Positions 1,336-34,961 of a stretch of 64,000 nt of DNA are shown here, in pieces. The DNA is from Steroidobacteraceae bacterium. Its GTDB lineage: Bacteria; Pseudomonadota; Gammaproteobacteria; Steroidobacterales; Steroidobacteraceae. The notes beneath the pieces are model-generated. The model did not search any database, was not told where the DNA came from, and worked only from the letters and a program-made list of their open reading frames with translations. The stretch's first letter is position 1, and the number at the start of each line of letters is the position of its first letter. The stretch covers positions 14,487 to 78,486 of the forward strand of contig JBEBIT010000008.1 in the NCBI GenBank assembly GCA_040080215.1, read 5' to 3'. A program made the translations under genes and the position numbers.

Positions 1336-2169
1336 TTATTTGACCGTAACGAGGTAAGCGGTGACGTCGTGGATGTTCTTGTCGGTGTACTTCGGCAGCA
1401 GTGCCTTGTGGCCGACAAGCGGGTCCATGATCTCGACCTTCGGCGAGTCGCCCTTGCGCGTGAAGGTCCGCTGGGCGCCGTCGGGCAGCCGGATCGTCAG
1501 CGTGAACTCATCGATCCGCAGCAGGTCGCCGGTGGCGGTGCCGGTTGTCGTGGTGACACTCGCTCTCGAACAAGTGCCGCTCGCGGGCATCAGCCAGCGC
1601 TGCTGCAGGGGACGCGCCTCGGTGTACTTGGCGCCGATGCCCTTCAAGTCGCCGGTAACCGAGTGGCAGCTGGCGCAGTTCTCGCCGAAGAAGCGCTTGC
1701 CTGCGTTCGCGTTGCCGGTGACGAACTCGGCTGGCCGCATGCGGGCCGGGTCGCGGCTGCTGATCGAGAAGCTGTGCAGGAACTCGGCGATGTCCGCCAT
1801 CTGTTCCTTCGACAGCGAGAACGCGGCCATTGCGGTTCCCGGCACACCCTTGGTCACGATGTCGGAGATCAGCTCGCCTTTCTGGTCCCTCAGTACGAGC
1901 TGCGAACGCAGCAGGCTCGGGCCGCCGTCGCCGCCGCGCGTATCCTTGCCGTGGCAGAAGGCGCAGCCGTTCAACTGGTACAGGGCCGAGCCGCGTTCGA
2001 CGGCCGCCGGATCGGTCGTGCGTTCCGGATAGGCCTGCACTTGCTGGAAGGCGGGGATCTCCGACTCGCATTGCTTGAGGGCCTGGGCAGCCGCGTTGCC
2101 CGACAGCGTGAGCAAAGTGGCGATTGCGGTGCTCAGCTGCAACGTCTTAAGCAATTTCCGGTTGCGCAA
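1336..2169 (-). CDS. Di-haem c-type cytochrome, exported
   Basis: ORF 1336..2424(-). It has two CxxCH motifs (NGCAFCHGK and ENCASCHSV). I place the start at the TTG at 2169-2167, which has an AGGGGAA Shine-Dalgarno 6-7 nt upstream and gives the signal peptide (M)RNRKLLKTLQLSTAIATLLTLSGNAAAQA. It is adjacent to the downstream PQQ dehydrogenase with a 1-nt gap. Confidence 0.85.
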   Translation of the reverse strand: MRNRKLLKTLQLSTAIATLLTLSGNAAAQALKQCESEIPAFQQVQAYPERTTDPAAVERGSALYQLNGCAFCHGKDTRGGDGGPSLLRSQLVLRDQKGELISDIVTKGVPGTAMAAFSLSKEQMADIAEFLHSFSISSRDPARMRPAEFVTGNANAGKRFFGENCASCHSVTGDLKGIGAKYTEARPLQQRWLMPASGTCSRASVTTTTGTATGDLLRIDEFTLTIRLPDGAQRTFTRKGDSPKVEIMDPLVGHKALLPKYTDKNIHDVTAYLVTVK

Positions 2170-2300
2170 ACGGGTTCCCCTGTCTTTTAGGTCGCCCCTC
2201 GATGTCGGGGCGGATTGTCGATGCGGATTCTGCAATTGCGGAAGCGGCAGCACAAACCCAAGTGCGGGGCGCTGCCGGCAGTCATCACGCGGCGATAGTA

Positions 2301-2312
2301 GTAATCGATTAC
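2301..2312. promoter_or_regulatory. Perfect 12-bp palindrome GTAATCGATTAC; candidate LacI-family operator (site 1)
   Basis: Read directly from the sequence. It is self-complementary with a central CG, which is the architecture of LacI/GalR-family operators. It lies about 130 nt upstream of the cytochrome c start, in the 490-bp divergent intergenic region. Confidence 0.6.
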
Positions 2313-2496
2313 AGGGTTTTAGGGAAGCACCCGAAGCGCGGCAGCGGACACGTTGTTCGCCGCTTGCGCGGGCGTGGACCTTCACGGACTGTTTTGCTGC
2401 GATGCCGCATAGACTCCCTGCCAAACCGGGGCACAGACAAAATCAATTCGTGCTCTGGACATAAACCCCACTTCGCGCGCATATTCCCGACCAAAG

Positions 2497-2660: not shown

Positions 2661-3404
2661 ATGATCGACTTCATGGCCATACACCGTCGCTTTCACGATT
2701 CGCGCCTCCGACGCGCTGCCGTTGCGTGGCTCGCGAGCTGCCTTTTGTCGCCGGTCGCGTCTTACGCGATGGCGCCCGCAGCAGAAGCCCAGGATCTTTC
2801 GGGCACCTGGGAAGTGCGCTACGACAGCCAGAGCGTGCCTGTGGCCAGGCTTACTGCAAAAGCCAAGGCGGCCAGCGCGGCCATGGCAGTGAAGGACATC
2901 GAGTCCCGTCGCTGGTGCCGCATCGGCGGCATGCCTTTCCTCATGCTCGAATCCCCGTTGCTGATTATCCGCCAGAGCCGTGCCGAGATCGTGGTCGCAC
3001 CGCAGGTGCAGGCCGTCGCCCGGCACCTCTATACCGATGGCGTCGCCCGTGCCGACCTCAAGGACTTCGATCCCGCCACGAATGGCTACACGGTGGCTCG
3101 CTGGGAAGGCAGCGTGCTGGTAGCGGAAACGAGCGGCTTCTCGGACCTCGGCATCGTCACGATTCCCGGCGGCGGCTATCGCACGGAGAACTCGCGGCTC
3201 GTGGAGCGCTTTCGGGTGCTCGACGGCGGCAAGCGCTTGTCGGTGACGTCCACGTGGACGGATCCGGGTGTCTTTGCGCAGCCCCATACCTATGAGGTCC
3301 GCTATTACCGGGCCGATGCCGGCGCGAGCGCATCCGCGCAGGCCTGCAATCCCTTCGAGGCCGGCCGCGAGGCATTCTTCGCGCCGGCGTTAGGTAAGAA
3401 GTAA
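2661..3404 (+). CDS. Secreted protein of unknown function, family A subtype I (copy A1)
   Basis: ORF 2661..3404. It has an N-terminal hydrophobic leader followed by DLSGTWE. Motifs shared with the paralog at 10679..11419(-) are SRRWC-x3-GMP, RWEGxxLVxET, PGGGYRT, LVERFRV and TWTDPGVFxQPHTY, plus a second Cys near the C-terminus. The start could instead be the ATG at 2673. Confidence 0.75.
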   Translation: MIDFMAIHRRFHDSRLRRAAVAWLASCLLSPVASYAMAPAAEAQDLSGTWEVRYDSQSVPVARLTAKAKAASAAMAVKDIESRRWCRIGGMPFLMLESPLLIIRQSRAEIVVAPQVQAVARHLYTDGVARADLKDFDPATNGYTVARWEGSVLVAETSGFSDLGIVTIPGGGYRTENSRLVERFRVLDGGKRLSVTSTWTDPGVFAQPHTYEVRYYRADAGASASAQACNPFEAGREAFFAPALGKK

Positions 3405-3416
3405 GGAGTCCACACG

Positions 3417-3809
3417 ATGAAGTTCCATTTCGCCGCGGCGCTTGCGCTTGGCTTTTCGGGTGCTGCGTTCGCGCATCATTCGTTCTCCATGTTCGACATG
3501 GACAAGGACGTGACGCTGGAAGGCAGCGTCATCGAATACCGCTTCGGGAATCCGCATTCCCACATCATCATCAAGGTTCCTGCCGGCAAGGCACAGGCAG
3601 AGTACGCCGGCAACTGGGATGTCGAGGGCGGCAGCGCGACCATCATGCGCCGGCAAGGCTGGTCGCGGGAAACCTTCAAGCCGGGTGACGGCATCAAGAT
3701 AGTCGGGCACCCGATGCGCGATGGCACCAAGGGCATTTCACTGTTCTACGCGATCATGCCGGACGGCACCCGCCTGTACCACGACATCGCCCGGCCGAAG
3801 GCCGACTGA
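3417..3809 (+). CDS. Small secreted protein, family B (copy B1); I recall similar proteins annotated as DUF6152, which needs checking
   Basis: ORF 3417..3809, with an AAGGAG Shine-Dalgarno upstream. The signal peptide MKFHFAAALALGFSGAAFA ends in an AxA site and is followed directly by HHSFSMFD. Conserved NPHSH and GHPMRDG motifs are present. The paralog is at 10224..10637(-). Confidence 0.8.
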   Translation: MKFHFAAALALGFSGAAFAHHSFSMFDMDKDVTLEGSVIEYRFGNPHSHIIIKVPAGKAQAEYAGNWDVEGGSATIMRRQGWSRETFKPGDGIKIVGHPMRDGTKGISLFYAIMPDGTRLYHDIARPKAD

Positions 3810-3823
3810 TCTGCGGAGCCAAC

Positions 3824-4597
3824 ATGACCACGCAGACTTCGATGTGGCTGTCCCTCGTGCTTGCGTTGCCGGTGCTGACGGCGACCCAGGCTGTCCATGC
3901 GGCGGCCGCGCCGAACGTCGATCTCAGCGGCTTCTGGGAGCGGCGCGACACGCAGGGCGGCGGCAGCTTCGGCGGCATGCTGGCCAGTTTGCCAAAGGCA
4001 GTGCTCGTGCCGGATTTCGTGCCGCCGCGTGCACCCTCCACGCAGGTTGATCCGCCGAGCACCGGCAAGCCGAATGCGGTCGGGGTGCCGTATATCGTCA
4101 CGACCGGCAACTGCAGCACGAGTGCCAGCCTCAACATTCCCTTCATGATGACCCACTCCACGCCGATCGACATCGTGCAGGGTGCGGACGAAATCCTGAT
4201 CGTTCCTGAAATGCCGGGCGCGCAGCGGATCTACATGGACGGCCGTGCGCATCCCGCGACGGGTCGCGTGGCGCCGACCGGCCTCGGACATTCCGTCGGC
4301 CGATGGGAAGGCAATGAACTCGTTGTCCATACGGTCGGCATGTCGGCGGGGGGAGGCATTCCGGGCGGGGGCTTTCGCACGCCGGAGACCGAGCTCACGC
4401 AGCGCTGGCGTCTCAAGGAAGGTGGCGCACAGCTCGAGGTCGAGTTCACGTGGGTCGATCCCAAGATCTATGCAAAGCCGCATACCTTCTCGCTGACGTA
4501 CTTCCGCATGCCTCAATCGACCTACGCGCTCGAGGAATGGTGCGATTCCGGCGACCCGTTGCAGCGGCAGTCGATCGTCCCCCCGAAGCAGGACTGA
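3824..4597 (+). CDS. Secreted protein of unknown function, family A subtype II (copy A2)
   Basis: ORF 3824..4597. It has a signal peptide followed by VDLSGFWE. Core motifs are RIYMDGRAHP, GHSVGRWEGNELVVHT, PGGGFRT, LTQRWRL and FTWVDPKIYAKPHTF, and the C-terminus is EEWCDSGDP...VPPKQD. The closest paralog is 11428..12264(-), which ends in PPKQE. Confidence 0.8.
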   Translation: MTTQTSMWLSLVLALPVLTATQAVHAAAAPNVDLSGFWERRDTQGGGSFGGMLASLPKAVLVPDFVPPRAPSTQVDPPSTGKPNAVGVPYIVTTGNCSTSASLNIPFMMTHSTPIDIVQGADEILIVPEMPGAQRIYMDGRAHPATGRVAPTGLGHSVGRWEGNELVVHTVGMSAGGGIPGGGFRTPETELTQRWRLKEGGAQLEVEFTWVDPKIYAKPHTFSLTYFRMPQSTYALEEWCDSGDPLQRQSIVPPKQD

Positions 4598-5674: not shown

Positions 5675-7933
5675 ATGACCGAGAAAAGACCGGCTATCCA
5701 TCTTTCGCACCTCACCAGGCTGTGCCTGGGACTCGGTGCGCTTACCTTCACGTCGGCCTCGATGGCGCAAGCGCTCGAGGAAGTGGTCGTCACGGCGTTG
5801 CGCGTCGAGTCGAACGTGCAGAAGACCCCGATCGCGATGGAAGTGCTCGACAGCGACGCACTCAAGGACCAGGGCATCGTCAACGTCGCGACGCTCGCCG
5901 CAGTGAGCCCCAGCGTGAACATCACCGGCTTCGGTGGCGGCACCGTGCTCACGGTGCGCGGTGTCTCGAGCCGTGACACGACCGAGATCGGCGATCCGGC
6001 CGTGGTCGTGAGCGTCGACGGCTTCTACCAGGACCGTTCGTATGCGCTCGGCCTCTCCCAGTACGATCTCGCCCGCATGGAAATCCTGCGCGGACCTCAG
6101 GGCACGCTGTATGGCCGCAATGCGACCGGCGGTGCGATCAACATGTTCACCGTGCGACCGAGCAAGGAAGCCGGCGGCTACGCACAGGCGGACTTCGGCA
6201 ACTACGGTGCGATCAATGCAGAAGGTGCCATCAACGTGCCGTTCGGCGACCGCGTGCAGATGCGGGCGTCGTTTGGTTCGCTGTACCACGACGGGTATCG
6301 CGACGGCGGCTTCTTCGGCAAGATGGACGACGCCAACTCCCGCTCGGGGCGGTTGCAGTTTGCCTTCCAGCCCACCGAAAACCTTGATCTGTGGATCCTC
6401 GCGCAGCACACCAAGCAGACGTCGCTTGGCAACTCCGCGAATCTGAGAGGCTATAACGTCCTGCCGGCGACAACCTGCAACATGGTGGCCGCAGGTGCTG
6501 TACCGGCAAGAACCGGACCCTGCCAGCTGGTCAACCACAGCGCGATTCCCGAGCTCGGTGATCCGCAGGTGTATACGAAGTATTACATGTCGCAGCTCAA
6601 CCTGGATGACACGGTCGTCAAATGGAATGCGACCCTTCGCACGCCGATCGCGACCATCACGTACCTCGGTGGTTACGACCGTCTGGATTGGGATTCCTAC
6701 AATCCGGGAGCCACCTTCCCGAGTCCGCTCAACGTAGCCACCGTGCAAGCGAACTTCGCCACCGTCTACAACCAGACGGAAAAGCCGCGGACGACGAACC
6801 ACGAACTGCGGTTCCAGTCGGTCGACCCGGACGCAAGGTTGACGTGGCAGTTCGGTGCGTTCTACTTCAAGAACGACAACGACCTGGACTCTTTCAACCA
6901 GCGTCCGAACGGCACGGCGAACCCGACGCCGGTCATCCACTTCATCTACGACGTCGGCATCAAGTCGCTGGCCGAGATGGCCCAGGTGGCGTTCAAGGTG
7001 ACGGACGACTTCAAGGTCACGGCCGGCTTCCGGCACAACAAGGACGAGAAGTCGCGCCAGGGTTACTTTGGTGGGTTCCAGTACCTGCCGCCGACGCAGC
7101 CGCTGGTCATCAGCCCCGGAAGCGACATCAGCAAGAACACGTACCACCTCGGCCTCGACTGGCAGCTGAACCCGGACTCGCTCCTCTATGCGAAGTACGG
7201 CACAGGCTACAAGTCGGGCGGCTTCACGGACATCGCGCCGTACGGTCCCGAAGAGATCAAGACCTACGAAGTGGGTTCGAAGAACCGCTTCTTCAACAAC
7301 CAGGTTCAGTTGAACCTGTCGGCCTACCGCAGCGACTACAGCGGCCAGCAGGTGCAACAGATCGTCCAGGGTGGTGGTGGACTCAAGATCGAGAACGCGG
7401 GCGAGACCAAGCTGCAGGGTCTTGAAGCCGAACTCACCATGTCCTCGGACCTTGGACAGCTCGAGTTCAACCTGGCCTACCTCGATGCCGAGTTCACGAA
7501 GTTCGACCTTGCGTACGGTGCGCCCGTGTTCGACGTCACCCGCCAGGCATGGGCCAGTCTTGCGACGGTCAATGTCGACCTCTCGGGCAATCGTCCGCAG
7601 CAGGCCCCGGAGTGGACGATCGGTGCGGCCGTGCAGCGCTCGTTCAATGTCTGGGACGGCGAGCTGACGACGCGTGTGCAGACCAAGTACCAGACGGAGC
7701 AGTTCTACACGTTCTTCAACCGTCCGGACGACATGCAGAAGGCGTATGCCACCATCAACTTCCTCGCGACGTATGCGCCCACCGGCAGTCCGTGGCAGTT
7801 CCAGGCGTACGTGAACAACCTGAGCAACGAAACGGTGTTCTCGAACGCGGGTCCCAACGATCGCTCGTTTGTGTACTCCTACACGTATCAGGCGCCGCGC
7901 ACGTATGGAGGCCGCGTCAGCTACAAGTGGTAA
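5675..7933 (+). CDS. TonB-dependent outer-membrane receptor
   Basis: ORF 5675..7933, 752 aa. It has a signal peptide ending in MAQA and a plug domain (EEVVVTALRVESNVQKTPIAMEVL...LRGPQGTLYGRNATGGAIN). A long beta-barrel follows, with the C-terminal motif RTYGGRVSYKW. Confidence 0.95.
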   Translation: MTEKRPAIHLSHLTRLCLGLGALTFTSASMAQALEEVVVTALRVESNVQKTPIAMEVLDSDALKDQGIVNVATLAAVSPSVNITGFGGGTVLTVRGVSSRDTTEIGDPAVVVSVDGFYQDRSYALGLSQYDLARMEILRGPQGTLYGRNATGGAINMFTVRPSKEAGGYAQADFGNYGAINAEGAINVPFGDRVQMRASFGSLYHDGYRDGGFFGKMDDANSRSGRLQFAFQPTENLDLWILAQHTKQTSLGNSANLRGYNVLPATTCNMVAAGAVPARTGPCQLVNHSAIPELGDPQVYTKYYMSQLNLDDTVVKWNATLRTPIATITYLGGYDRLDWDSYNPGATFPSPLNVATVQANFATVYNQTEKPRTTNHELRFQSVDPDARLTWQFGAFYFKNDNDLDSFNQRPNGTANPTPVIHFIYDVGIKSLAEMAQVAFKVTDDFKVTAGFRHNKDEKSRQGYFGGFQYLPPTQPLVISPGSDISKNTYHLGLDWQLNPDSLLYAKYGTGYKSGGFTDIAPYGPEEIKTYEVGSKNRFFNNQVQLNLSAYRSDYSGQQVQQIVQGGGGLKIENAGETKLQGLEAELTMSSDLGQLEFNLAYLDAEFTKFDLAYGAPVFDVTRQAWASLATVNVDLSGNRPQQAPEWTIGAAVQRSFNVWDGELTTRVQTKYQTEQFYTFFNRPDDMQKAYATINFLATYAPTGSPWQFQAYVNNLSNETVFSNAGPNDRSFVYSYTYQAPRTYGGRVSYKW

Positions 7934-7963
7934 GCCTGGAATAGGGCGCTGTCAGAGACTCCA

Positions 7964-7998
7964 GCCGCGACGTGCTCAAGGCGTCGCGGCTTTTTTTT
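7964..7998 (+). terminator. Rho-independent terminator after the TonB receptor gene
   Basis: A 9-bp GC stem (GCCGCGACG at 7964-7972 pairing with CGTCGCGGC at 7982-7990) is followed by T8 at 7991-7998, about 30 nt after the stop codon. Confidence 0.85.
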
Positions 7999-8039
7999 GC
8001 TCGATGACGGCAGCGATGAACCCATTTGCAAGGTGCAGG

Positions 8040-10202
8040 ATGAAGTACCGGATGCCCGTCGCCGTGTTGGTGGCAACACTCTGTTCCCCGCTGGGTGGGT
8101 GCGATCGCGATGGGGCGTCTGCAGGCCAGGCCGACGCCGATTGGCCCGCGTACGGTGGGCATGAAACCGGCGACCGCTATTCGGGCCTCACGCAGATCAC
8201 GCCTGCCAACGTCACCAGCCTCAAGGTCGCGTGGCGCGTCGATCACGCAGGGACCGGCGAATCCCAGACGCAGCCGCTGGTCGTGGGCGGCACCGTGTAC
8301 ACGTATACGCCGGACCACAAGGTGCTGGCCCTCGATGCCGCTACAGGCGAACGTCGCTGGCAGTTCGATTCCGGACTCGTCGGCACTGGCCCTGCGCGCG
8401 GCCTGACGTGGTGGACGGACGGCAAGACGAGCCGCGTGTTTGCAAGCGTAATGAATTACCTCTTTGCGCTCGATCCTGCCACCGGCACGCCGCTGCAGGA
8501 CTTCGGCGTTCAAGGCGCGGTCGACTTGCGGCAGGGTCTGCGGGGCGACCCCCACGATCACTTCGTCGCGCTGACTTCGCCCGGCATTGTCTACAAGGAC
8601 CTCCTCATCGTCGGCTTCCGCACCAGCGAGACGATGCCTGCGCCGCCCGGCGATATCCGTGCGTACGATGTCCGCACCGGCGAGCTGCGCTGGACTTTCC
8701 ATACCCTGCCTGAGGCCAACGAGCCCGGCGCAGGAAGCTGGCCGGGCGACGCTCGTGCAACATCCGGAGCAGCCAACAACTGGGTAGGCATGGTGATCGA
8801 TGCGGGACGGGGCATCGTCTACGTGCCCACCGGATCCGCGGTGCCCGACTTCATCGGCATCGATCGCAAAGGCGACAACCTGTATGCGAACTCGCTGCTG
8901 GCGCTCGATGCCGCGACGGGCAAGCGCCTGTGGCATTTCCAGCTGGTGCACCACGATATCTGGGACCGCGATCCGCCGTCGCCCCCGGTGCTACTCACGA
9001 TCCGGCGCAATGGCAAGCAGATCGATGCCGTCGCACAGACGACGAAGCAGGGTTTCGTGTTCGTGTTCGATCGCGTGAGCGGCGAGCCGCTGTTTCCGGT
9101 CGAGGAACGCGCCTACCCGGCCAGCTCGCTCCCCGGTGAAGTGGCTTCACCTACGCAGCCCTTTCCGGTGCTGCCCGAACCCATCGCGCGGCAGCGGCTG
9201 ACAGAAGACATGCTGACGACAAGGACGCCTGAGGCCCATGCTGCGGCGCTGGATCGGTTCCGGACAATGCGCAGCGACGGGCAGTTTGTTCCGCTCGCGC
9301 TTGGCAAGCCCACCGTGGTCTTCCCGGGCTTCGACGGGGGAGCCGAGTGGGGCGGCGCCGCTGTGGATCCGCGGTCGGGCGTGCTGTACGTCAATGCGAA
9401 CGATGTGGCGTGGACCGGCGAGCTCGCACCTAACGTACCCGTCACGGGCGTCGCCGCGTCGCTGTACCAGGTACAGTGCGCCGCGTGTCATGGCGTCGAG
9501 CGCAAGGGCTCGCCACCCGCGTTTCCGTCACTCGTCGATGTGGGGCGGCGTCTCCCGGCTGCCGACGTTGTGACGGTCATCCGTGACGGGCGAGGCCGGA
9601 TGCCGCCGTTCGGCGCGCTGGGCGCGGAATCCATTGCCCTGCTCCAGGATTATCTGGTCACCGGCAACGATCGGCCTCTGCCGAGCCCCGTGGCATCCGC
9701 AGGCCCGGTGACTGCAGCACAGGCCGGCAGGGAGCCGATGACGAGGACGCTGCGCAACCCCAGCTCGCCGGGCAAGTACCGCTTCACGGGGTACCAGAAG
9801 TTCCTGGATGCAGACGGCTATCCCGCGATCGTACCCCCGTGGGGAACGCTCAACGCCATCGACCTCAACACCGGAAAGTATTTATGGAAGGTGCCGCTCG
9901 GCGAATATCCTGAGCTGGTGGCGCAGGGCATGAAGGACACGGGGTCGGAAAACTACGGTGGCCCGGTCGTTACCGAGGGCGGGCTGGTGTTCATCGGCGC
10001 GACGGTGTTCGACCACAAGCTGCGCGCATTCGACAGCAGGACCGGGAAGGTGTTGTGGCAGTACGAGCTGCCCTATGCGGGGACCGCGACGCCGGCGGTC
10101 TACAGCGTGGCAGGCAAGCAGTATGTCGTCATTTCCACCAGCAACGCGCGCAACCGCAATGCGCCGCAGGGGAGCGCGCTGATCGCCTTTTCACTTCCGT
10201 GA
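8040..10202 (+). CDS. PQQ-dependent beta-propeller dehydrogenase (glucose/quinate dehydrogenase-like) with an internally inserted c-type cytochrome domain; probable lipoprotein
   Basis: The ATG at 8040 lies downstream of the terminator and is preceded by AGGTGCAGG. The leader MKYRMPVAVLVATLCSPLGGCD contains the lipobox LGGC. The propeller motifs are DWPAYGGHETGDRYSGLTQITPANVTSLKVAWR, ALDAATGERRWQF and ALDAATGKRLWHF. The CAACHG haem site (YQVQCAACHGVERKG...GRMPPFG) sits between propeller segments. Confidence 0.9.
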   Translation: MKYRMPVAVLVATLCSPLGGCDRDGASAGQADADWPAYGGHETGDRYSGLTQITPANVTSLKVAWRVDHAGTGESQTQPLVVGGTVYTYTPDHKVLALDAATGERRWQFDSGLVGTGPARGLTWWTDGKTSRVFASVMNYLFALDPATGTPLQDFGVQGAVDLRQGLRGDPHDHFVALTSPGIVYKDLLIVGFRTSETMPAPPGDIRAYDVRTGELRWTFHTLPEANEPGAGSWPGDARATSGAANNWVGMVIDAGRGIVYVPTGSAVPDFIGIDRKGDNLYANSLLALDAATGKRLWHFQLVHHDIWDRDPPSPPVLLTIRRNGKQIDAVAQTTKQGFVFVFDRVSGEPLFPVEERAYPASSLPGEVASPTQPFPVLPEPIARQRLTEDMLTTRTPEAHAAALDRFRTMRSDGQFVPLALGKPTVVFPGFDGGAEWGGAAVDPRSGVLYVNANDVAWTGELAPNVPVTGVAASLYQVQCAACHGVERKGSPPAFPSLVDVGRRLPAADVVTVIRDGRGRMPPFGALGAESIALLQDYLVTGNDRPLPSPVASAGPVTAAQAGREPMTRTLRNPSSPGKYRFTGYQKFLDADGYPAIVPPWGTLNAIDLNTGKYLWKVPLGEYPELVAQGMKDTGSENYGGPVVTEGGLVFIGATVFDHKLRAFDSRTGKVLWQYELPYAGTATPAVYSVAGKQYVVISTSNARNRNAPQGSALIAFSLP

Positions 10203-10223: not shown

Positions 10224-10637
10224 TTACTCGGCCTTGGGACGAGCGATGTCCGTATACAGCCGCGTGCCGTCCGGCTTGTTGATGTAGAACAGGGCGCCGC
10301 CCTTGTTGCCGTCGCGCAGCGGATGGATCACCGCGTCGATGGGCTCACCGGCCTTCAGGGTCGACTTGGTCCAGCCCTGGCGGCCCATGATGACCGTGCC
10401 GCCGCCGCACTCGAAGTCCCACAGGCCGACCAGCGCCGGGTCGATGCCGGGCGCTGCGTCAACCTTGACGGTCACGTGCACGTGCGGGTTCATCCACTTG
10501 TATTCGACTACCGTGCCCTTCACGGCGACATTCTTGTCCATCTCGAACATGGCAAACGAATGATGGGCGAGGGCCGGCATCGCGATCGCGCCAGCCAGTG
10601 CCAGGGAAGCGAGCCATCGGGAAAGGTTGGGTCTCAT
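10224..10637 (-). CDS. Small secreted protein, family B (copy B2); paralog of 3417..3809
   Basis: Internal ATG at 10637-10635 of ORF 10224..10988(-). The sequence MRPNLSRWLASLALAGAIAMPALA is followed directly by HHSFAMFEMDKNVAVKGTVVEYKWMNPHVHVTVKV and, later, IHPLRDGNKG. Confidence 0.8.
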   Translation of the reverse strand: MRPNLSRWLASLALAGAIAMPALAHHSFAMFEMDKNVAVKGTVVEYKWMNPHVHVTVKVDAAPGIDPALVGLWDFECGGGTVIMGRQGWTKSTLKAGEPIDAVIHPLRDGNKGGALFYINKPDGTRLYTDIARPKAE

Positions 10638-10678: not shown

Positions 10679-11419
10679 CTATTTCGCGGACGGCGGGTTG
10701 GCAAAGAACTCGGCGCGCTCCTTGTCGAGCGGATCGCAGTCGAGCGTTGTTTGTACTTCGTAGAACTTCGGCGCCCGCGTATAGCGGTACGCGTAGGTGT
10801 GCGGCGTCTTGAAGACCTTGGGGTCCTCCCAGGTGAACGTGACGATCAGCGCATTGCCGTTGTTCGCGAGGCGATAACGTTCGGTGAGCTTGCTGTCCGT
10901 CGTGCGGAACCCGCCTCCGGGCAGCAGCGTCAGGCCCTTGTCGCCGTCGATGCCGACGGTCGTGACGACGAACGTATTGCCTTCCCAATGCCCGACGGAG
11001 TCGCCCGTCGACGTGAAGTCATAGTCGTCGAGGAGCATGTTGTCCTTGCGGTCGAGGTAGATGTGCCTCGGCGTCGCGCGCGTCTCGAAGTTGACCAGGA
11101 CCTCGTGGGCGGACTGGCGGATGTCGATCGGGCGCGGTGAATCCATGGCCATCGGCATGCCGATGAAGTAGCACCACCTGCGGGAGTTCGCATCCTTGGC
11201 CCGGTGTTCGGCAATGACGGCAGGCGTGACGGACGGCTGCAGGTTCGCTTGCGGAATATTGCGGCCGTCGTAGGGGAGTTCCCAGAAGCCGCTGATGTTA
11301 TGCGGATCGAACGACGCAGCCGGTGCCGCAGCCTGGGCAGGCAACACCATCGAGAGCGCCGTCGCCACGGTGGCGGCACGCAGCGAGGCGCGTACGAGAT
11401 TCTTGAGTGCGAATGCCAT
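10679..11419 (-). CDS. Secreted protein of unknown function, family A subtype I (copy A3)
   Basis: The ATG at 11419-11417 (MAFALKNLVRASLRAATVATALSMVLPAQAAAP) is preceded by AGGAG. Motifs present are NISGFWE, SRRWCYFIGMP, GHWEGNTFVVTT, PGGGFRT, LTERYRL, FTWEDPKVFKTPHTY and LDCDP. Confidence 0.8.
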   Translation of the reverse strand: MAFALKNLVRASLRAATVATALSMVLPAQAAAPAASFDPHNISGFWELPYDGRNIPQANLQPSVTPAVIAEHRAKDANSRRWCYFIGMPMAMDSPRPIDIRQSAHEVLVNFETRATPRHIYLDRKDNMLLDDYDFTSTGDSVGHWEGNTFVVTTVGIDGDKGLTLLPGGGFRTTDSKLTERYRLANNGNALIVTFTWEDPKVFKTPHTYAYRYTRAPKFYEVQTTLDCDPLDKERAEFFANPPSAK

Positions 11420-11427
11420 GGACGTCG

Positions 11428-12264
11428 TTACTCCTGCTTGGGCGGAGCCACGCCCTGTGACTGCTTGGGATCCGCGGCGTCGCAGTACCACTCGAACGCG
11501 AGCTGCCTTGGTAGTCCGCGTTCCGCGAGGATCTCGAACGTATGCGGCTTCGTGTAGATCTTCGGGTCCGTGAAGGTGTAGCGCATCGTGAGGCGATTGC
11601 CATCGGGGGACAGGCTGTAGCGCTCGACCAGGACCGTCTCCGGCGTCTTGTAGCCGCCGGCCGGGACACCGCCTGGCGTGAGTCCGACGGTTTCGAACAC
11701 CAGCGCACCGCCTTCATAGCGGCCTACCGAATGGCCGGTCGCGGTCGGCACAAAGCGCTTGAGGTCGGGATGCGGACGGCCGTCCATGTAGATGTTCCGG
11801 CCAAGGCCCGGATTCTCACGGACGATCACGACCTCGTCGCGGTCCTGCACGATGTGGAACGCGGCCGAGTTCGGTTCAATTCCGCCAGGGAAGCCGCACG
11901 TGCCGGCAGTAACCACGTAGGCCTCGCCGTTCTGGTACTTCTTGTTCGGATCCCATGCACCCGTCCGCGGGCCTGCCTTCTTCTCGCGTTCCCGCTGTTC
12001 CGCGTAGGCCGGAGTCAGGGAGGCTTGCGGAAAACCCGCGGCGAGGTTGTCGAAACTGCCGGACCCGGTCGCATCGATGCGAACCCAGGCACCAGTCAGG
12101 TCCGGAATGCCACCGGCCGGCTGTGCCGCGCTTGCGGGTGCGACAGTACCGAGCGCGCCCGCGGCGACCGTGATCGGGATCGCCAGCCACCGTGAGAAGC
12201 GGCGGACAGCAGGCGGACTGCGTCTTGCAATCGTCGCGTTGGTTAGCGAAGCGTGGGCTGGCAT
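11428..12264 (-). CDS. Secreted protein of unknown function, family A subtype II (copy A4)
   Basis: ORF 11428..12303(-). I prefer the ATG at 12264 because GGAG lies about 8 nt upstream. Motifs present are IPDLTGAW, RNIYMDGRPHP, GHSVGRYEGGALVFET, AGGYKTP, LVERYSL, YTFTDPKIYTKPHTF and WYCDAADP...APPKQE. Confidence 0.8.
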   Translation of the reverse strand: MPAHASLTNATIARRSPPAVRRFSRWLAIPITVAAGALGTVAPASAAQPAGGIPDLTGAWVRIDATGSGSFDNLAAGFPQASLTPAYAEQREREKKAGPRTGAWDPNKKYQNGEAYVVTAGTCGFPGGIEPNSAAFHIVQDRDEVVIVRENPGLGRNIYMDGRPHPDLKRFVPTATGHSVGRYEGGALVFETVGLTPGGVPAGGYKTPETVLVERYSLSPDGNRLTMRYTFTDPKIYTKPHTFEILAERGLPRQLAFEWYCDAADPKQSQGVAPPKQE

Positions 12265-12309
12265 TGTGGGTCTCCGGAGGGCTCCATCCAGCGGCCTCGG
12301 CACTGAAAT

Positions 12310-17528: not shown

Positions 17529-18404
17529 TTACTGCCAGCCGTTGCGCCAGTAAAGGCACATGCGGTCGACGTTGAGCGGCAGGTACTCGTCGTAGGTCAC
17601 CCAGCTCGCGTATTTCGGGAGCTTGATTTCCTTTGGCGCGACGTCGGGGCACTTGCCCTGCATGTGGGCGACGCGGACGGCTTCCTTCAGGTCCGTGAAG
17701 TAGCCCTTCATCGCGCGGATGTCGTCCTTGTCGCCCCAGCCCTTGGGGTTGTTCGCACGCGGATGGCTGACGACCAGCTTCTCCCAGTCGAGCGCGAGCA
17801 CGCGGTCGATACCTTCCAGCCATTCGTCGACGTAGGAGTCGAACATGCTGCGCCAGAAGATTTCCTTCACCGGCAGCCAGTCGGCGGCGTAGATGACCTT
17901 CTGGTCGGGTACCGAGATCACGAGACTGTTGTCGGAGTGATTGCGGCCAAGGTAGAGCAGGTCGACGCGGGTCTTGCCTACTTTAAGCGTCATCTTGTCG
18001 TTGACCAGCTTCGTCGGCAGCGGGATGGCCGGGTTCTTCAGGCGATCAAGCTGCACACGGGCAAGTCGATGCGCAACGAACTCAGTGCCTTTCTCCTGGA
18101 ATACCGCGCCACCTTCGATGTGGTCGTAATGATGATGGCTGTAGACCACATACTTGATCGGCGCCTGCGTGATCTTGCGAATCTCCGCGAGGTACACGGG
18201 CGCCGTGGTCGTGCTGATCGGATCAGTGACGACGACGCCTGCCGGGTCGACGACGAACATCGACTGGTAACCGCGGTACTGGAAGATGTACACGCCCGGC
18301 ATGACGTTCTTCACCTCAGCGGGAGGCGGTTCGGCTCCCATGAGCACGCTGCTCACGGCGCCCAGGCACAGCAGGGCGATCAGTCGAAAGAGTCGGTGGT
18401 GCAT
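17529..18404 (-). CDS. Secreted MBL-fold metallo-hydrolase
   Basis: ORF 17529..18404(-). It has the signal peptide MHHRLFRLIALLCLGAVSSVLMGA and the HxHxDH motif SHHHYDHIEGG. Confidence 0.85.
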   Translation of the reverse strand: MHHRLFRLIALLCLGAVSSVLMGAEPPPAEVKNVMPGVYIFQYRGYQSMFVVDPAGVVVTDPISTTTAPVYLAEIRKITQAPIKYVVYSHHHYDHIEGGAVFQEKGTEFVAHRLARVQLDRLKNPAIPLPTKLVNDKMTLKVGKTRVDLLYLGRNHSDNSLVISVPDQKVIYAADWLPVKEIFWRSMFDSYVDEWLEGIDRVLALDWEKLVVSHPRANNPKGWGDKDDIRAMKGYFTDLKEAVRVAHMQGKCPDVAPKEIKLPKYASWVTYDEYLPLNVDRMCLYWRNGWQ

Positions 18405-32183: not shown

Positions 32184-33041
32184 ATGAAATTCCCTGGATT
32201 GCCCCTCTGTGCGTTTGCTGCGTTGCTGTTCGCCGGCAGCGCGGCCCACGCCCAGGTCGACCTCACTGGCATGTGGGGTCAGTTGACGACCTCGGACGGA
32301 CCCGAACGTGGCGCCGGTCCCGACTACGGCGACTACACCGGGCTACCGCTGAGCGCAGCAGGCCTGCTGCGGGCCGAAACCTGGAGCGACCAGAAATGGA
32401 CGGTACCGGAGCATCAGTGCGAGCCGCATCCGATCGACTATGCGCCATTCGGTCCTGCCGGCATGCGCGTCTGGGGCGACGTCGATCACCCGACGCAGCG
32501 GATAACAGCGCTGCACCAGACGTTCCAGTGGATGATCACGCATCGAGTGATCTGGCTTGACGGCCGCCCGCACCCGTCGCAGTACGCCCCGCACACATGG
32601 ATGGGGTTTAGCACGGGCAAGTGGATCGGCGACATGCTGGTCGTAAACACCACCCATATCAAGGAAGGCTGGATACGGCGCAATGGACCTTCCCGCAGCG
32701 AGAAGGGCAAGCTGACCGAATACTGGATGCGGCACGACAACCTGCTGACGATCACCAGCATTACCGAAGACCCGGTGTACCTGACGGAACCGGTTGTCCG
32801 CAGCATGAACTGGCAGCTGGATCCGGGTTACCAGCACGGCCCCTATCCGTGCTCGGCACGCGTCGAGATCGAACGGCCGCAGGGCTTTGTCGCGCACTTC
32901 CTGCCTGGGACGAATCCGCTGCTTGCCGAGTTCCGCGACAAGCTGGGAGTGCCTGTCCAGGCCGCGCAGGGGGGCGCTGAAGCGCTGTACCCGGAGTACG
33001 AGCAGAAGCTGCGCGACATGATCAAGGCTGCGAAGAAGTAG
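32184..33041 (+). CDS. Secreted protein of unknown function, family A subtype III (copy A5)
   Basis: Internal ATG at 32184. The signal peptide MKFPGLPLCAFAALLFAGSAAHAQ is followed by VDLTGMWGQL. Motifs present are RVIWLDGRPHP, GFSTGKWIGDMLVVNTTHIKEGWIRRNG and EDPVYLTEP. The two Cys residues are in equivalent positions to those of A1-A4. Confidence 0.7.
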   Translation: MKFPGLPLCAFAALLFAGSAAHAQVDLTGMWGQLTTSDGPERGAGPDYGDYTGLPLSAAGLLRAETWSDQKWTVPEHQCEPHPIDYAPFGPAGMRVWGDVDHPTQRITALHQTFQWMITHRVIWLDGRPHPSQYAPHTWMGFSTGKWIGDMLVVNTTHIKEGWIRRNGPSRSEKGKLTEYWMRHDNLLTITSITEDPVYLTEPVVRSMNWQLDPGYQHGPYPCSARVEIERPQGFVAHFLPGTNPLLAEFRDKLGVPVQAAQGGAEALYPEYEQKLRDMIKAAKK

Positions 33042-33053
33042 TGGAGCGTATTC

Positions 33054-34085
33054 GTGATGAGACGACTGCAAATGAAACTAAATGACGGGTGCGCGTTCGC
33101 CGTCGCGTTGCTGCTCGTGGTTGCGGGCGCTGCGGCAGTGCAGGCTGCACAACCAGCGCGTCGCGGCCAGGCTGCCGCGCCCGCCGCGCCGCCACCGCTG
33201 GAACTCGTCACGGAGCACCTCCGCGGCAATCTCTACATGATTGGCGGCGACGGTGGCAACGTTACGGTGCAGATCGGTGAGCAGGGCGTGGTGGTTATCG
33301 ATACCGGCTTTGTGCAGAACGCACCCGCGTTGCTTGGGGAAATCCGCAAGCTTTCAGACAAGAAGATCACCTATATCATCAACACCCACTATCACGCGGA
33401 TCACACGGGCGGCAACGCGTTCATTGCCCCTACCGGACAGTATGTCGGTGGCGTTGGCATCGGCGTCGCGCCGCGGGCAGCCATCTGGGCCCACGAAAAC
33501 GTATTGACGCGAGTGAGTACGACCACTGGCAGTGGCAAGGAGCCGCTGGTTCCGCCGCAGGGCTGGCCGATCGAGACCTACTTCACCGCCGAGCAGGAGA
33601 TCTTTTTCAACGGTGAACCCATTCAGCTGATCCACATGCCCAACGCGCATACGGATGGTGACAGCATCGTGTTCTTCCGGCGCTCCGACGTGATTGCAAC
33701 GGGAGACCTGTTCAATACAACGATGTATCCGTACATCGATGCAGCAGCGGGCGGGAACATCAATGGTTATATCGATGCGCTGAACCACATTATCGATCTC
33801 GCGATACCGGCCGAGAACGAGGAGGGGGGCACGATGATCGTGTCGGGCCATGGCCGGATCGGCGATGAATACGATCTGCTGGTCTACCGGGATGCCATCA
33901 CGATCATCCGCGATCGTATTGCGGACTTGATCGGCAAGGGATTGACGCTTGAGCAGGTGCAGGCCGCAAAGCCGACGCTGGATTACGACGGCATCTACGG
34001 AGCGACATCGGGGTTCTGGACCACGACACAGTTTGTAGCCGCTGTTTACGGCGACCTGAAACAGGCCAGGGCGGAAGCGAAGTAA
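33054..34085 (+). CDS. Secreted MBL-fold metallo-hydrolase
   Basis: ORF 33054..34085. It has a hydrophobic leader ending AAAVQAA, the HxHxDH motif NTHYHADHTGGN, and later HMPNAHTDGD and SGHG. Confidence 0.85.
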   Translation: MMRRLQMKLNDGCAFAVALLLVVAGAAAVQAAQPARRGQAAAPAAPPPLELVTEHLRGNLYMIGGDGGNVTVQIGEQGVVVIDTGFVQNAPALLGEIRKLSDKKITYIINTHYHADHTGGNAFIAPTGQYVGGVGIGVAPRAAIWAHENVLTRVSTTTGSGKEPLVPPQGWPIETYFTAEQEIFFNGEPIQLIHMPNAHTDGDSIVFFRRSDVIATGDLFNTTMYPYIDAAAGGNINGYIDALNHIIDLAIPAENEEGGTMIVSGHGRIGDEYDLLVYRDAITIIRDRIADLIGKGLTLEQVQAAKPTLDYDGIYGATSGFWTTTQFVAAVYGDLKQARAEAK

Positions 34086-34961
34086 ATGAACACTTCAACA
34101 AGGATCACTAGAGCGGGAATGGCTGCGGTGCTGGCGTTTGCCTGTGTTGCAACAAGTCATGCCGGCGCCCCTCCTGCAGGTGCGCCACGCGCCGCGGCGC
34201 CCAATCCATTTGCCCCTGCCCCACAAGGCAAGCCTGGCGCGACGATTGACCTTACCGGCAACTGGGTGCCGATCATCAGCCAGGACTGGCGCTGGCGAAT
34301 GATTACTCCGCCGAAGGGCGACTATTCAGCTGTGCCGTTGAATCCCAATGGCACGCGGGTCGCGGACAGTTGGGATCTTGCCAGGGACGACGCGGCGGGC
34401 GAGCAGTGCAAGGCGTTTGGCGCTCCTGCGATCATGCGGGTACCCGGCAGACTGCGCATCAGCTGGCAGGATGACATGACACTGAAGCTTGAGTTCGATG
34501 CGGGTCAGCAGACCCGCCTGCTGAGGTTCAGCGCGCCGAACACGCCTCCACTGATGGCATCAGGGGAGCGAACCTGGCAGGGCTTTTCGACAGCGAGCTG
34601 GTTCAAGCAACAGCAGCGGCGCGGGTTCGTGCCGTTTGCACCTCCGGGAGAAATTGCACCAGGGGGGAGCCTGACGGTGGAGACGACAAATCTGAAGGCA
34701 GGTTACCTGCGCAAGAACGGCGTGCCATACAGCGAGAACGCGCAGCTCAAGGAATACTTTGACCGGTTGCAGCAGCCGGACGGAACCGAATGGCTGGTGG
34801 TGACAACGGTCGTGACCGATCCGATGTACCTTCGCCAGCCCTTCGTTGTCGCCACACACTTCAAGAAGGAGCCTGACGGTTCGAAGTGGAATCCGCAGCC
34901 GTGCCGGACCGATCCGCCGGTCGTCGACAATTTCAAGAACCGGCCGGCGGGCTTCCGCTGA
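34086..34961 (+). CDS. Secreted protein of unknown function, family A subtype III (copy A6)
   Basis: ORF 34086..34961, starting immediately after the MBL stop. Motifs present are IDLTGNWVPI, GEQCKAFGAP, TTNLKAGYLRKNGVPYSE, TDPMYLRQP and a C-terminal NPQPC. Confidence 0.7.
   Translation: MNTSTRITRAGMAAVLAFACVATSHAGAPPAGAPRAAAPNPFAPAPQGKPGATIDLTGNWVPIISQDWRWRMITPPKGDYSAVPLNPNGTRVADSWDLARDDAAGEQCKAFGAPAIMRVPGRLRISWQDDMTLKLEFDAGQQTRLLRFSAPNTPPLMASGERTWQGFSTASWFKQQQRRGFVPFAPPGEIAPGGSLTVETTNLKAGYLRKNGVPYSENAQLKEYFDRLQQPDGTEWLVVTTVVTDPMYLRQPFVVATHFKKEPDGSKWNPQPCRTDPPVVDNFKNRPAGFR

Follow-up and report, generated by a model that had tools for sequence, protein, structure and literature searches.

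Alkylsulfatases of the metallo-beta-lactamase (MBL) type carry a fused lipid-binding domain, and in SdsA1, Pisa1 and YjcS (PDB 2cfu, 2yhe, 4pdx), which are exported enzymes from soil bacteria, the MBL domain is permanently joined to a substrate-recruiting, SCP2-like domain of the same polypeptide. Flavodiiron proteins hold a di-iron site with the motif H-x-E-x-D-H in the MBL fold, and calycin-type inhibitors of metalloproteases are known, for example beside secreted serralysins. In the ped cluster of Pseudomonas putida a periplasmic SoxH-like MBL protein (PP_2678) is encoded beside a small beta-rich SoxYZ-like carrier (PP_2677), both of unknown role (PMC12997753). Here we analysed 64,000 nucleotides from a Steroidobacteraceae bacterium (assembly GCA_040080215.1, contig JBEBIT010000008.1, positions 14,487 to 78,486 of the forward strand; the window is this whole stretch), in which the gene of an exported MBL-fold protein lies between two genes, A5 and A6, of a family of unannotated barrel-like proteins that we call family A (Table 1). 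Our best reading of this triad is that it encodes a multi-subunit exported MBL-fold protein, which would be of a kind otherwise known. MBL-type alkylsulfatases appear among the weak sequence matches of the window MBL protein (E about 5e-4), and this protein too is proposed to be an exported enzyme of a soil bacterium; the partners would here be one or two calycin-like barrels, usually encoded by separate genes.

One line of evidence for this reading is the conservation of the gene arrangement. A scan with A5 of one genome per species returned 448 relatives, and linkage was counted in the best 80 of these 448 loci, which belong to Steroidobacteraceae, other Gammaproteobacteria and many Acidobacteriota (Bryobacteraceae, Solibacteraceae, Terriglobia and Vicinamibacterales). 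Among the 69 homologues with at least 2.2 kb of downstream DNA, A5 was followed by this type of MBL gene in 63 and by MBL and A6 in 51, and two of the six exceptions were fused A5-MBL reading frames, so that 65 of 69 are followed by or fused to MBL. Counts taken from the MBL protein in 80 metagenome loci gave a family-A gene upstream in 54 of 59 cases and A6 downstream in 33 of 63, and a distinct variant made of A5 and MBL only exists in these loci. Taken together, the counts put A6 behind MBL in roughly 55-75% of cases. The gene order is conserved in two phyla, and the linkage with MBL genes, on which an earlier reading made from the letters alone (the sequence-only reading) had let its proposal depend, turned out to be very strongly conserved from both directions. 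Overlapping stop and start codons are common in the related loci. A5 shows the strongest conservation among the three proteins, with an identity between phyla of 52-62%, whatever the class of the accompanying MBL protein, compared with 42-58% for MBL.

Gene fusions have arisen between the same partners. Among the matches to A6 were proteins of about 500 amino acids in which an A5-type half is followed by an A6-type half, and the 120 best matches of one fusion search included about 26 A5-A6 fusions (485-601 amino acids) and about 47 A5-MBL fusions (about 630 amino acids, with an A5-type domain and then the MBL domain), signal peptides being retained in the fusions. Because of these fusions, and because the model of an A5-A6 fusion reached a predicted template-modelling score (pTM) of 0.90, which together make up the strongest evidence, the three products would form one complex; the fusions also argue that these proteins are permanent parts of a complex and not accessory proteins that bind loosely. 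The narrower claim, that of a conserved A5·MBL(·A6) complex, is in our view quite likely from these comparisons. Neither the family databases nor the literature searched contained a report that A5 or A6 partners an MBL-fold protein.

The three genes of the window are co-oriented, and the sequence-only reading was right in describing two family-A genes that bracket an exported MBL-fold gene with gaps of 12 and 0 nucleotides: the bracketing is confirmed by the open reading frames, the Pfam Lactamase_B match and the signal sequences, and the gaps by the codon positions at both junctions. The A5 stop codon (TAG, 33039-33041) is followed by GGAG before the MBL start, for which there are three candidates (GTG 33054, ATG 33057 and ATG 33072, the last being the choice of NCBI), and the MBL stop codon (TAA, 34083-34085) directly abuts the ATG of A6 at 34086; GGAG is also present upstream of the A5 start. 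Signal peptides could be read in all three proteins from a basic n-region, the hydrophobic stretch after it and an AxA-like site, with predicted cleavage between AHA and QVDLTG in A5, VQA and AQP in MBL, and SHA and GAP in A6. Scans of the region for Rfam families, transfer RNAs, and promoters or terminators gave nothing useful.

A5 and A6 are paralogues, and sequence comparison places the two in the same superfamily as A1 to A4, the remaining family-A proteins of the window. BLASTP aligned A5 and A6 with 30% identity over 246 amino acids (E 3e-22), and profile-profile comparison with hhalign, using profiles built from about 120 homologues each, gave a probability of 99.95% (E 4.6e-38, 203 columns). 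Compared with the A1-A4 profile, the A5 profile reached 99.3% (E 3.3e-20) and the A6 profile 97% (E 8e-11), a relationship that had been put forward from motifs with profile comparison as its test. A hidden Markov model scan of all window open reading frames yielded exactly six members, the number given before, and all the motifs that had been listed for A5 and A6 are present: (V/I)DLTGxW, GFST(G/A)xW, DPxYLx(E/Q)P and the subtype block TT(H/N)(I/L)K(E/A)G(W/Y)(I/L)R(R/K)NG. Two Cys residues and the G29 and W31 of a GxW motif are invariant across all six paralogues. A5 has many invariant polar or charged residues (D50, Y51, H82, D85, Y86, H158, K160, R165, R166, N167 and E179), its R206 is conserved in at least 95% of sequences, and it has a conserved helical C-terminal tail that is not found in A6.

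Structure prediction suggests what these proteins may look like. The A5 model, from 36 sequences, was mediocre, with a predicted local distance difference test score (pLDDT) of 73, and that of a natural A5-A6 fusion (P0132), from an alignment of 126 sequences that had first been verified to lie on the correct halves, had a pLDDT of 89 in addition to its high pTM. The fusion is predicted to contain two calycin-like beta-barrels of 8-9 consecutive antiparallel strands per domain, and both barrels and their relative arrangement are modelled with confidence. Each half has an invariant D-L-(T/S)-G-x-W in strand 1, then, between strands 1 and 2, a conserved helix-rich insertion of about 60 residues that contains the first Cys, and then eight more antiparallel strands followed by the second Cys. 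When the two models were compared with the PDB by Foldseek, the best matches were avidins, FABP/CRBP and tardigrade SAHS proteins (E 0.01-0.3, TM-score normalised to the target 0.45-0.62), with the two-barrel proteins BFA1 (5yvf) and AimA (6b7l) among the weaker ones, and nothing was found at E <= 1e-3. The lipocalin-like barrel that had been suggested for the family gains some weak support in this way, the modelled barrels being of the expected antiparallel kind and their PDB matches lying at E values of 0.01 or above. The predicted fold of A5 and A6 would then be calycin-like, with membership in the calycin superfamily itself unproven.

Several features recall the calycins (lipocalins, FABP/CRBP, avidins and SAHS): GxW lies in strand 1 of the model, and a conserved Arg of the last strand may correspond to the basic residue that packs on this Trp in calycins; the Cys pair of A5 and A6 likely tethers the C-terminal end, and the tandem arrangement of the A5 and A6 barrels recalls AimA and BFA1. 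Unlike calycins, A5 and A6 have the helix-rich insertion and the many invariant charged residues, and the Pfam searches showed no sequence-level tie to any lipocalin-like family.

The central protein of the triad matches Pfam Lactamase_B (PF00753) with 73.6 bits against a cut-off of 22.7 (E 2.7e-20), and its set of metal ligands is complete (HxHxDH, H196, D221 and H263, in the motifs THYHADH, WAHEN, HTDGD and SGHG), which places it in the canonical class of our census (pattern HHDH-H-H-D-D-H). The best-scoring named family is the SoxH-related quinoprotein relay zinc metallohydrolase (TIGR04559/TIGR04558), but the TIGR04559 score of 89.4 bits lies below the cut-off of 280, so that the protein is not a member. 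Among solved structures 8d2z, a protein of unknown function, comes nearest, followed by beta-lactamases of subclasses B2 and B3; literature searches on PDB 8D2Z, DUF6152 and DUF6644 returned nothing relevant. Judging by its ligands, the window MBL protein is probably an active di-zinc hydrolase.

The metal site is far from constant among the orthologues. We sorted 65 sandwiched MBL proteins by site class and recorded which gene families occur anywhere in the same locus. The canonical HxHxDH with H263 is found in 16 of the 65 loci (A6 in 6, a cytochrome of about 750 amino acids in none, DUF6152 in none, DUF6644 in 5), a variant S/T-x-D/E-x-D-H in 26 (A6 in 23, the cytochrome in 13, DUF6152 in 7, DUF6644 in 2), and degenerate sites, for example N-x-S-x-Q-N with R263, in 23 (A6 in 21, the cytochrome in 12, DUF6152 in 8, DUF6644 in 2). 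Within this one orthologous group HxHxDH drifts to SADPDH, TIDRDH, NADPRN, SFLPAH, HAHLEN and others, and in the MBL alignment D221 is invariant (66/66) and D219 nearly so (65/66). It looks as if the metal site had been lost or altered repeatedly within a complex that is otherwise conserved, which would offer a natural experiment on the re-use of an enzyme fold. The idea that the family-A proteins are accessory to periplasmic catalysis consequently does not hold in general, given the minority of sandwiched MBL proteins with canonical ligands.

The ~750-amino-acid cytochrome is an exported protein whose gene immediately precedes A5 in about 33 of the 80 related loci (for example L068:7977-10229 on the minus strand and L034:3512-5935). 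Besides a carboxypeptidase-regulatory-like domain it carries an invariant heme-c motif, K-x-C-x-x-C-H-Q, and numerous Cys, Trp and Gly residues that are likewise invariant; it has no Pfam match past the N-terminal domain and no relative in the PDB, and occurs only where the MBL metal motif is non-canonical. Modules of the canonical class, including that of the window, are mostly found by themselves or else accompanied by an AraC regulator or DUF6644 membrane proteins, and their neighbours are unrelated housekeeping genes (glycine cleavage, RNase E and fatty-acid genes).

Placing these results into a mechanism for the window triad, the three genes would constitute one operon with translational coupling, whose three products are exported by the Sec route, and A5, MBL and A6 would assemble into a periplasmic hetero-oligomer in which the MBL-fold protein provides the metal centre, A5 is its obligate partner and A6 pairs with A5 as a two-barrel unit. 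In such a scenario the MBL subunit of the window copy would hydrolyse a small exported or imported compound, and the barrels, as permanent subunits without a catalytic role, would bind the substrate, present it or form a cap over the active site, much like the lipid-binding domain fused to MBL-type alkylsulfatases. Because the di-zinc ligand set is intact, a di-zinc hydrolase with two fixed barrel subunits is the best reading for the window, and we give this sequence-based mechanism a probability of roughly 0.45.

Several observations weigh against it. The barrels have no significant match in the PDB, either by sequence or by fold, and the complex itself is proposed from gene fusions and synteny. 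The genes next to the triad are housekeeping genes (Ppnp, a low-molecular-weight phosphotyrosine phosphatase, RNase E) that give no hint of a substrate. A6 is dispensable in 10 of the 16 loci with a canonical site, where the MBL protein is accompanied by A5 only. In A5 and A6 the number of invariant polar and charged residues exceeds what would be expected for a passive hydrophobic binder, and these residues stay constant while the metal site of the MBL protein varies widely; because of this constancy they are unlikely to be tuned to the chemistry of the MBL protein.

In the main rival explanation, which we consider rather unlikely, the A5 and A6 barrels are the functional core, whether binding, carrier or catalytic, and the MBL protein serves as a scaffold or as a metal or redox subunit without hydrolytic activity in a periplasmic electron-transfer or metal-handling system. 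Such a role for the barrels would agree with the greater conservation of A5, with the small share of orthologues that keep HxHxDH and H263, and with the heme-c protein of about 750 amino acids that precedes the module in 25 of the 49 variant and degenerate loci, as well as with the frequent presence of DUF6152 in these two classes with the interleaving of DUF6644 genes and triads in one locus (L062) and with the DUF6644 genes beside A-like and DUF6152 genes on a Novosphingobium plasmid. The carboxylate at ligand position 118 also recalls the flavodiiron motif: in flavodiiron proteins a carboxylate replaces the second His of HxHxDH, as it does in the 26 variant orthologues but not in the window copy, and unlike flavodiiron proteins the orthologous MBL proteins lack a flavodoxin domain. 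The window protein nevertheless has the full ligands of a zinc hydrolase, none of the 16 members of its class is accompanied by the cytochrome or DUF6152, and the window contains no homologue of the ~750-amino-acid cytochrome or of DUF6644; moreover, the invariance of D221 and near-invariance of D219 suggest that some metal site may persist in all classes. That the barrels are encoded directly beside the enzyme and exported, and that their modelled calycin-like fold is also that of certain metalloprotease inhibitors, could be taken to mean that A5 and A6 act on the MBL protein in the periplasm as inhibitors, immunity proteins or chaperones (comparable to the serralysin inhibitors or the beta-lactamase inhibitors of the BLIP type), but we regard this as very unlikely, since the frequent covalent A5-MBL fusions and the high conservation of A5 fit a constitutive complex better, family-A pairs exist without MBL (A1/A2 and A3/A4, with DUF6152), and the known inhibitors have only half the size of these barrels. 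The least probable explanation, which we give almost no credit, is that the central gene encodes a plain environmental class B beta-lactamase flanked by unrelated genes. It would account for the nearness of B2 and B3 structures after 8d2z and for the weak matches to NCBIfam class-B models, but all of these scores lie far under their cut-offs (core 52.8 against 100, B2 48.2 against 240, B1 45.3 against 200, B3 36 against 240), the linkage to A5 is near-obligate and includes fusions, and metal ligands are missing in many orthologues.

Taking the whole orthologous group instead of the window copy, A5-MBL(-A6) might represent a widespread and unrecognised class of periplasmic multi-subunit metalloproteins of soil Gammaproteobacteria and Acidobacteriota, in which the barrels hold the conserved function, the metal site has passed from di-zinc to carboxylate-rich to ligand-less, and the complex works with a c-type cytochrome, DUF6152 and DUF6644. 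We hold this wider proposal to be possible but doubtful. If it were true, the barrels could have a carrier or redox role through their invariant Cys pair and polar residues, following a logic like that of SoxYZ with SoxH. A5 and A6 have no sequence relation to SoxY or SoxZ and lack their C-terminal GGCGG arm, and the neighbourhood of the TIGR04559 type (PQQ dehydrogenase, cytochrome c550 and SoxYZ-like carrier) is not found around the triad; pyrroloquinoline quinone (PQQ) dehydrogenases do occur near other family-A cassettes (in the window, and as GSDH genes in L003), none being beside the triad.

The barrel family is unannotated, the component folds themselves being known. For the six paralogues and for a fusion protein neither Pfam, even at E <= 10, nor NCBIfam gave a match, and the sequences of the PDB likewise gave none with three profiles, those of A5 and of the fusion among them. 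A search with the six-paralogue profile returned 13,804 clusters at 50% identity with E <= 1e-3 and 7,037 with E <= 1e-10, many members being tandem two-domain proteins; homologues of A5 fill at least 7,000 clusters at 90% identity, all named hypothetical, and those of A6 at least 7,800. The family is abundant in soil metagenomes and well conserved between phyla, and in the plasmid collection there were two weak matches only, both from Novosphingobium humi. We are therefore dealing with a large and widespread family that is named hypothetical protein everywhere, without a representative in Pfam, NCBIfam or the PDB, and its near-obligate partnership with MBL offers a testable hypothesis for thousands of unannotated genes; the finding settles no long-standing question.

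The other family-A genes of the window (Table 1) lie in two cassettes, A1-DUF6152-A2 and A3-A4-DUF6152, the second DUF6152 gene being absent from the list of the sequence-only reading. Its statement that family-A genes always come with exported enzymes does not hold, since in both cassettes the partner is a DUF6152 protein, of unknown function, and not a known enzyme. The further exported MBL-fold gene that it reported is real, but it has no family-A neighbour and its product is 24% identical to the central MBL protein; for these reasons it was rejected as a part of the system.

Table 1. Coordinates of the triad, the other family-A genes and related genes in the window.
Feature	Position	Strand	Description
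A5	32184-33041	+	285 amino acids, from the list of open reading frames; NCBI MEQ1579781.1 'hypothetical protein'
MBL-fold protein	33054-34085	+	343 amino acids from GTG 33054; NCBI MEQ1579782.1 'MBL fold metallo-hydrolase'
A6	34086-34961	+	291 amino acids; 100% identity to NCBI MEQ1579783.1 'hypothetical protein' (Steroidobacteraceae metagenome-assembled genome)
A1	2661-3404	+	family-A paralogue, first gene of cassette 1
DUF6152 gene	3417-3809	+	between A1 and A2; Pfam PF19649 4e-28; NCBI 'DUF6152 family protein'
A2	3824-4597	+	family-A paralogue, cassette 1
Second DUF6152 gene	10224-10637	-	137 amino acids, directly downstream of A4; PF19649 2.4e-25
A4	10679-11491	-	family-A paralogue directly downstream of A3; listed open reading frame too long at 5' end
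A3	11428-12303	-	family-A paralogue; listed open reading frame too long at 5' end
Second exported MBL	17529-18404		no adjacent family-A gene

Both mature DUF6152 proteins are predicted to begin with His-His (cleavage between AFA and HHSF in one and ALA and HHSF in the other, consensus HHSF[SA]MF[DE]MDK), with an NPH motif soon after, and an N-terminal His metal site as in the histidine-brace copper proteins is conceivable from this pattern. Near cassette 1 there are genes for a dihaem-type cytochrome c (1336-2424, minus strand), a xylose-isomerase-like TIM-barrel protein, a TonB-dependent receptor (5675-7933) and a PQQ quinohemoprotein dehydrogenase (7869-10202).

Related Steroidobacteraceae carry two to three A5-type paralogues within about 60 kb (L007, L009 and L013 in OZ257260.1, 731-793 kb; L005 and L008 in CAWFXI010000011.1), and some of these adjoin proteins of about 540 amino acids with a C-terminal MBL domain in place of the 340-amino-acid MBL protein. 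Among cultured bacteria, Steroidobacter agaridevorans SA29-B and S. flavus CGMCC 1.10759 carry the triad (L015, L017), in both cases with an MBL site of the degenerate class. A hidden family-A domain in these ~540-amino-acid proteins or in the ~750-amino-acid cytochrome was considered and rejected (hhalign probability below 2%).

Deducing the substrate from the gene neighbourhood was likewise rejected, the canonical class giving no consistent clue. In L062 (19-8754) two A5-MBL-A6 triads are interspersed with genes of DUF6644 membrane proteins, which are weakly like HemJ and DUF2214, and on the Novosphingobium humi plasmid NZ_CP103870 (L169, 5858-9833) DUF6644 genes lie divergently beside GH39-like, A-like and DUF6152 genes. 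Other related loci contain TonB-dependent receptors and CadC-like regulators. In one Acidobacteria/Vicinamibacterales subtype only (L084, L085 and L086-L088), two family-A/MBL modules lie in a gentisate-like operon with fumarylacetoacetate (FAA)-hydrolase, cupin and Amdase-family genes and a major facilitator superfamily transporter, and L084 also has tannase, carboxylesterase and GntR genes.

In the window itself, the triad is flanked by Ppnp and the low-molecular-weight phosphotyrosine phosphatase, with RNase E and a flavin adenine dinucleotide (FAD) monooxygenase nearby and an aromatic-catabolism cluster further upstream. The segment 44000-52300 has a guanine plus cytosine content of 0.58-0.60, compared with 0.62-0.66 elsewhere in the window, and corresponds to an ordinary type IV pilus minor-pilin cluster with PilY1-like (1175 amino acids), PilW-like and GspH/FimU-like genes.

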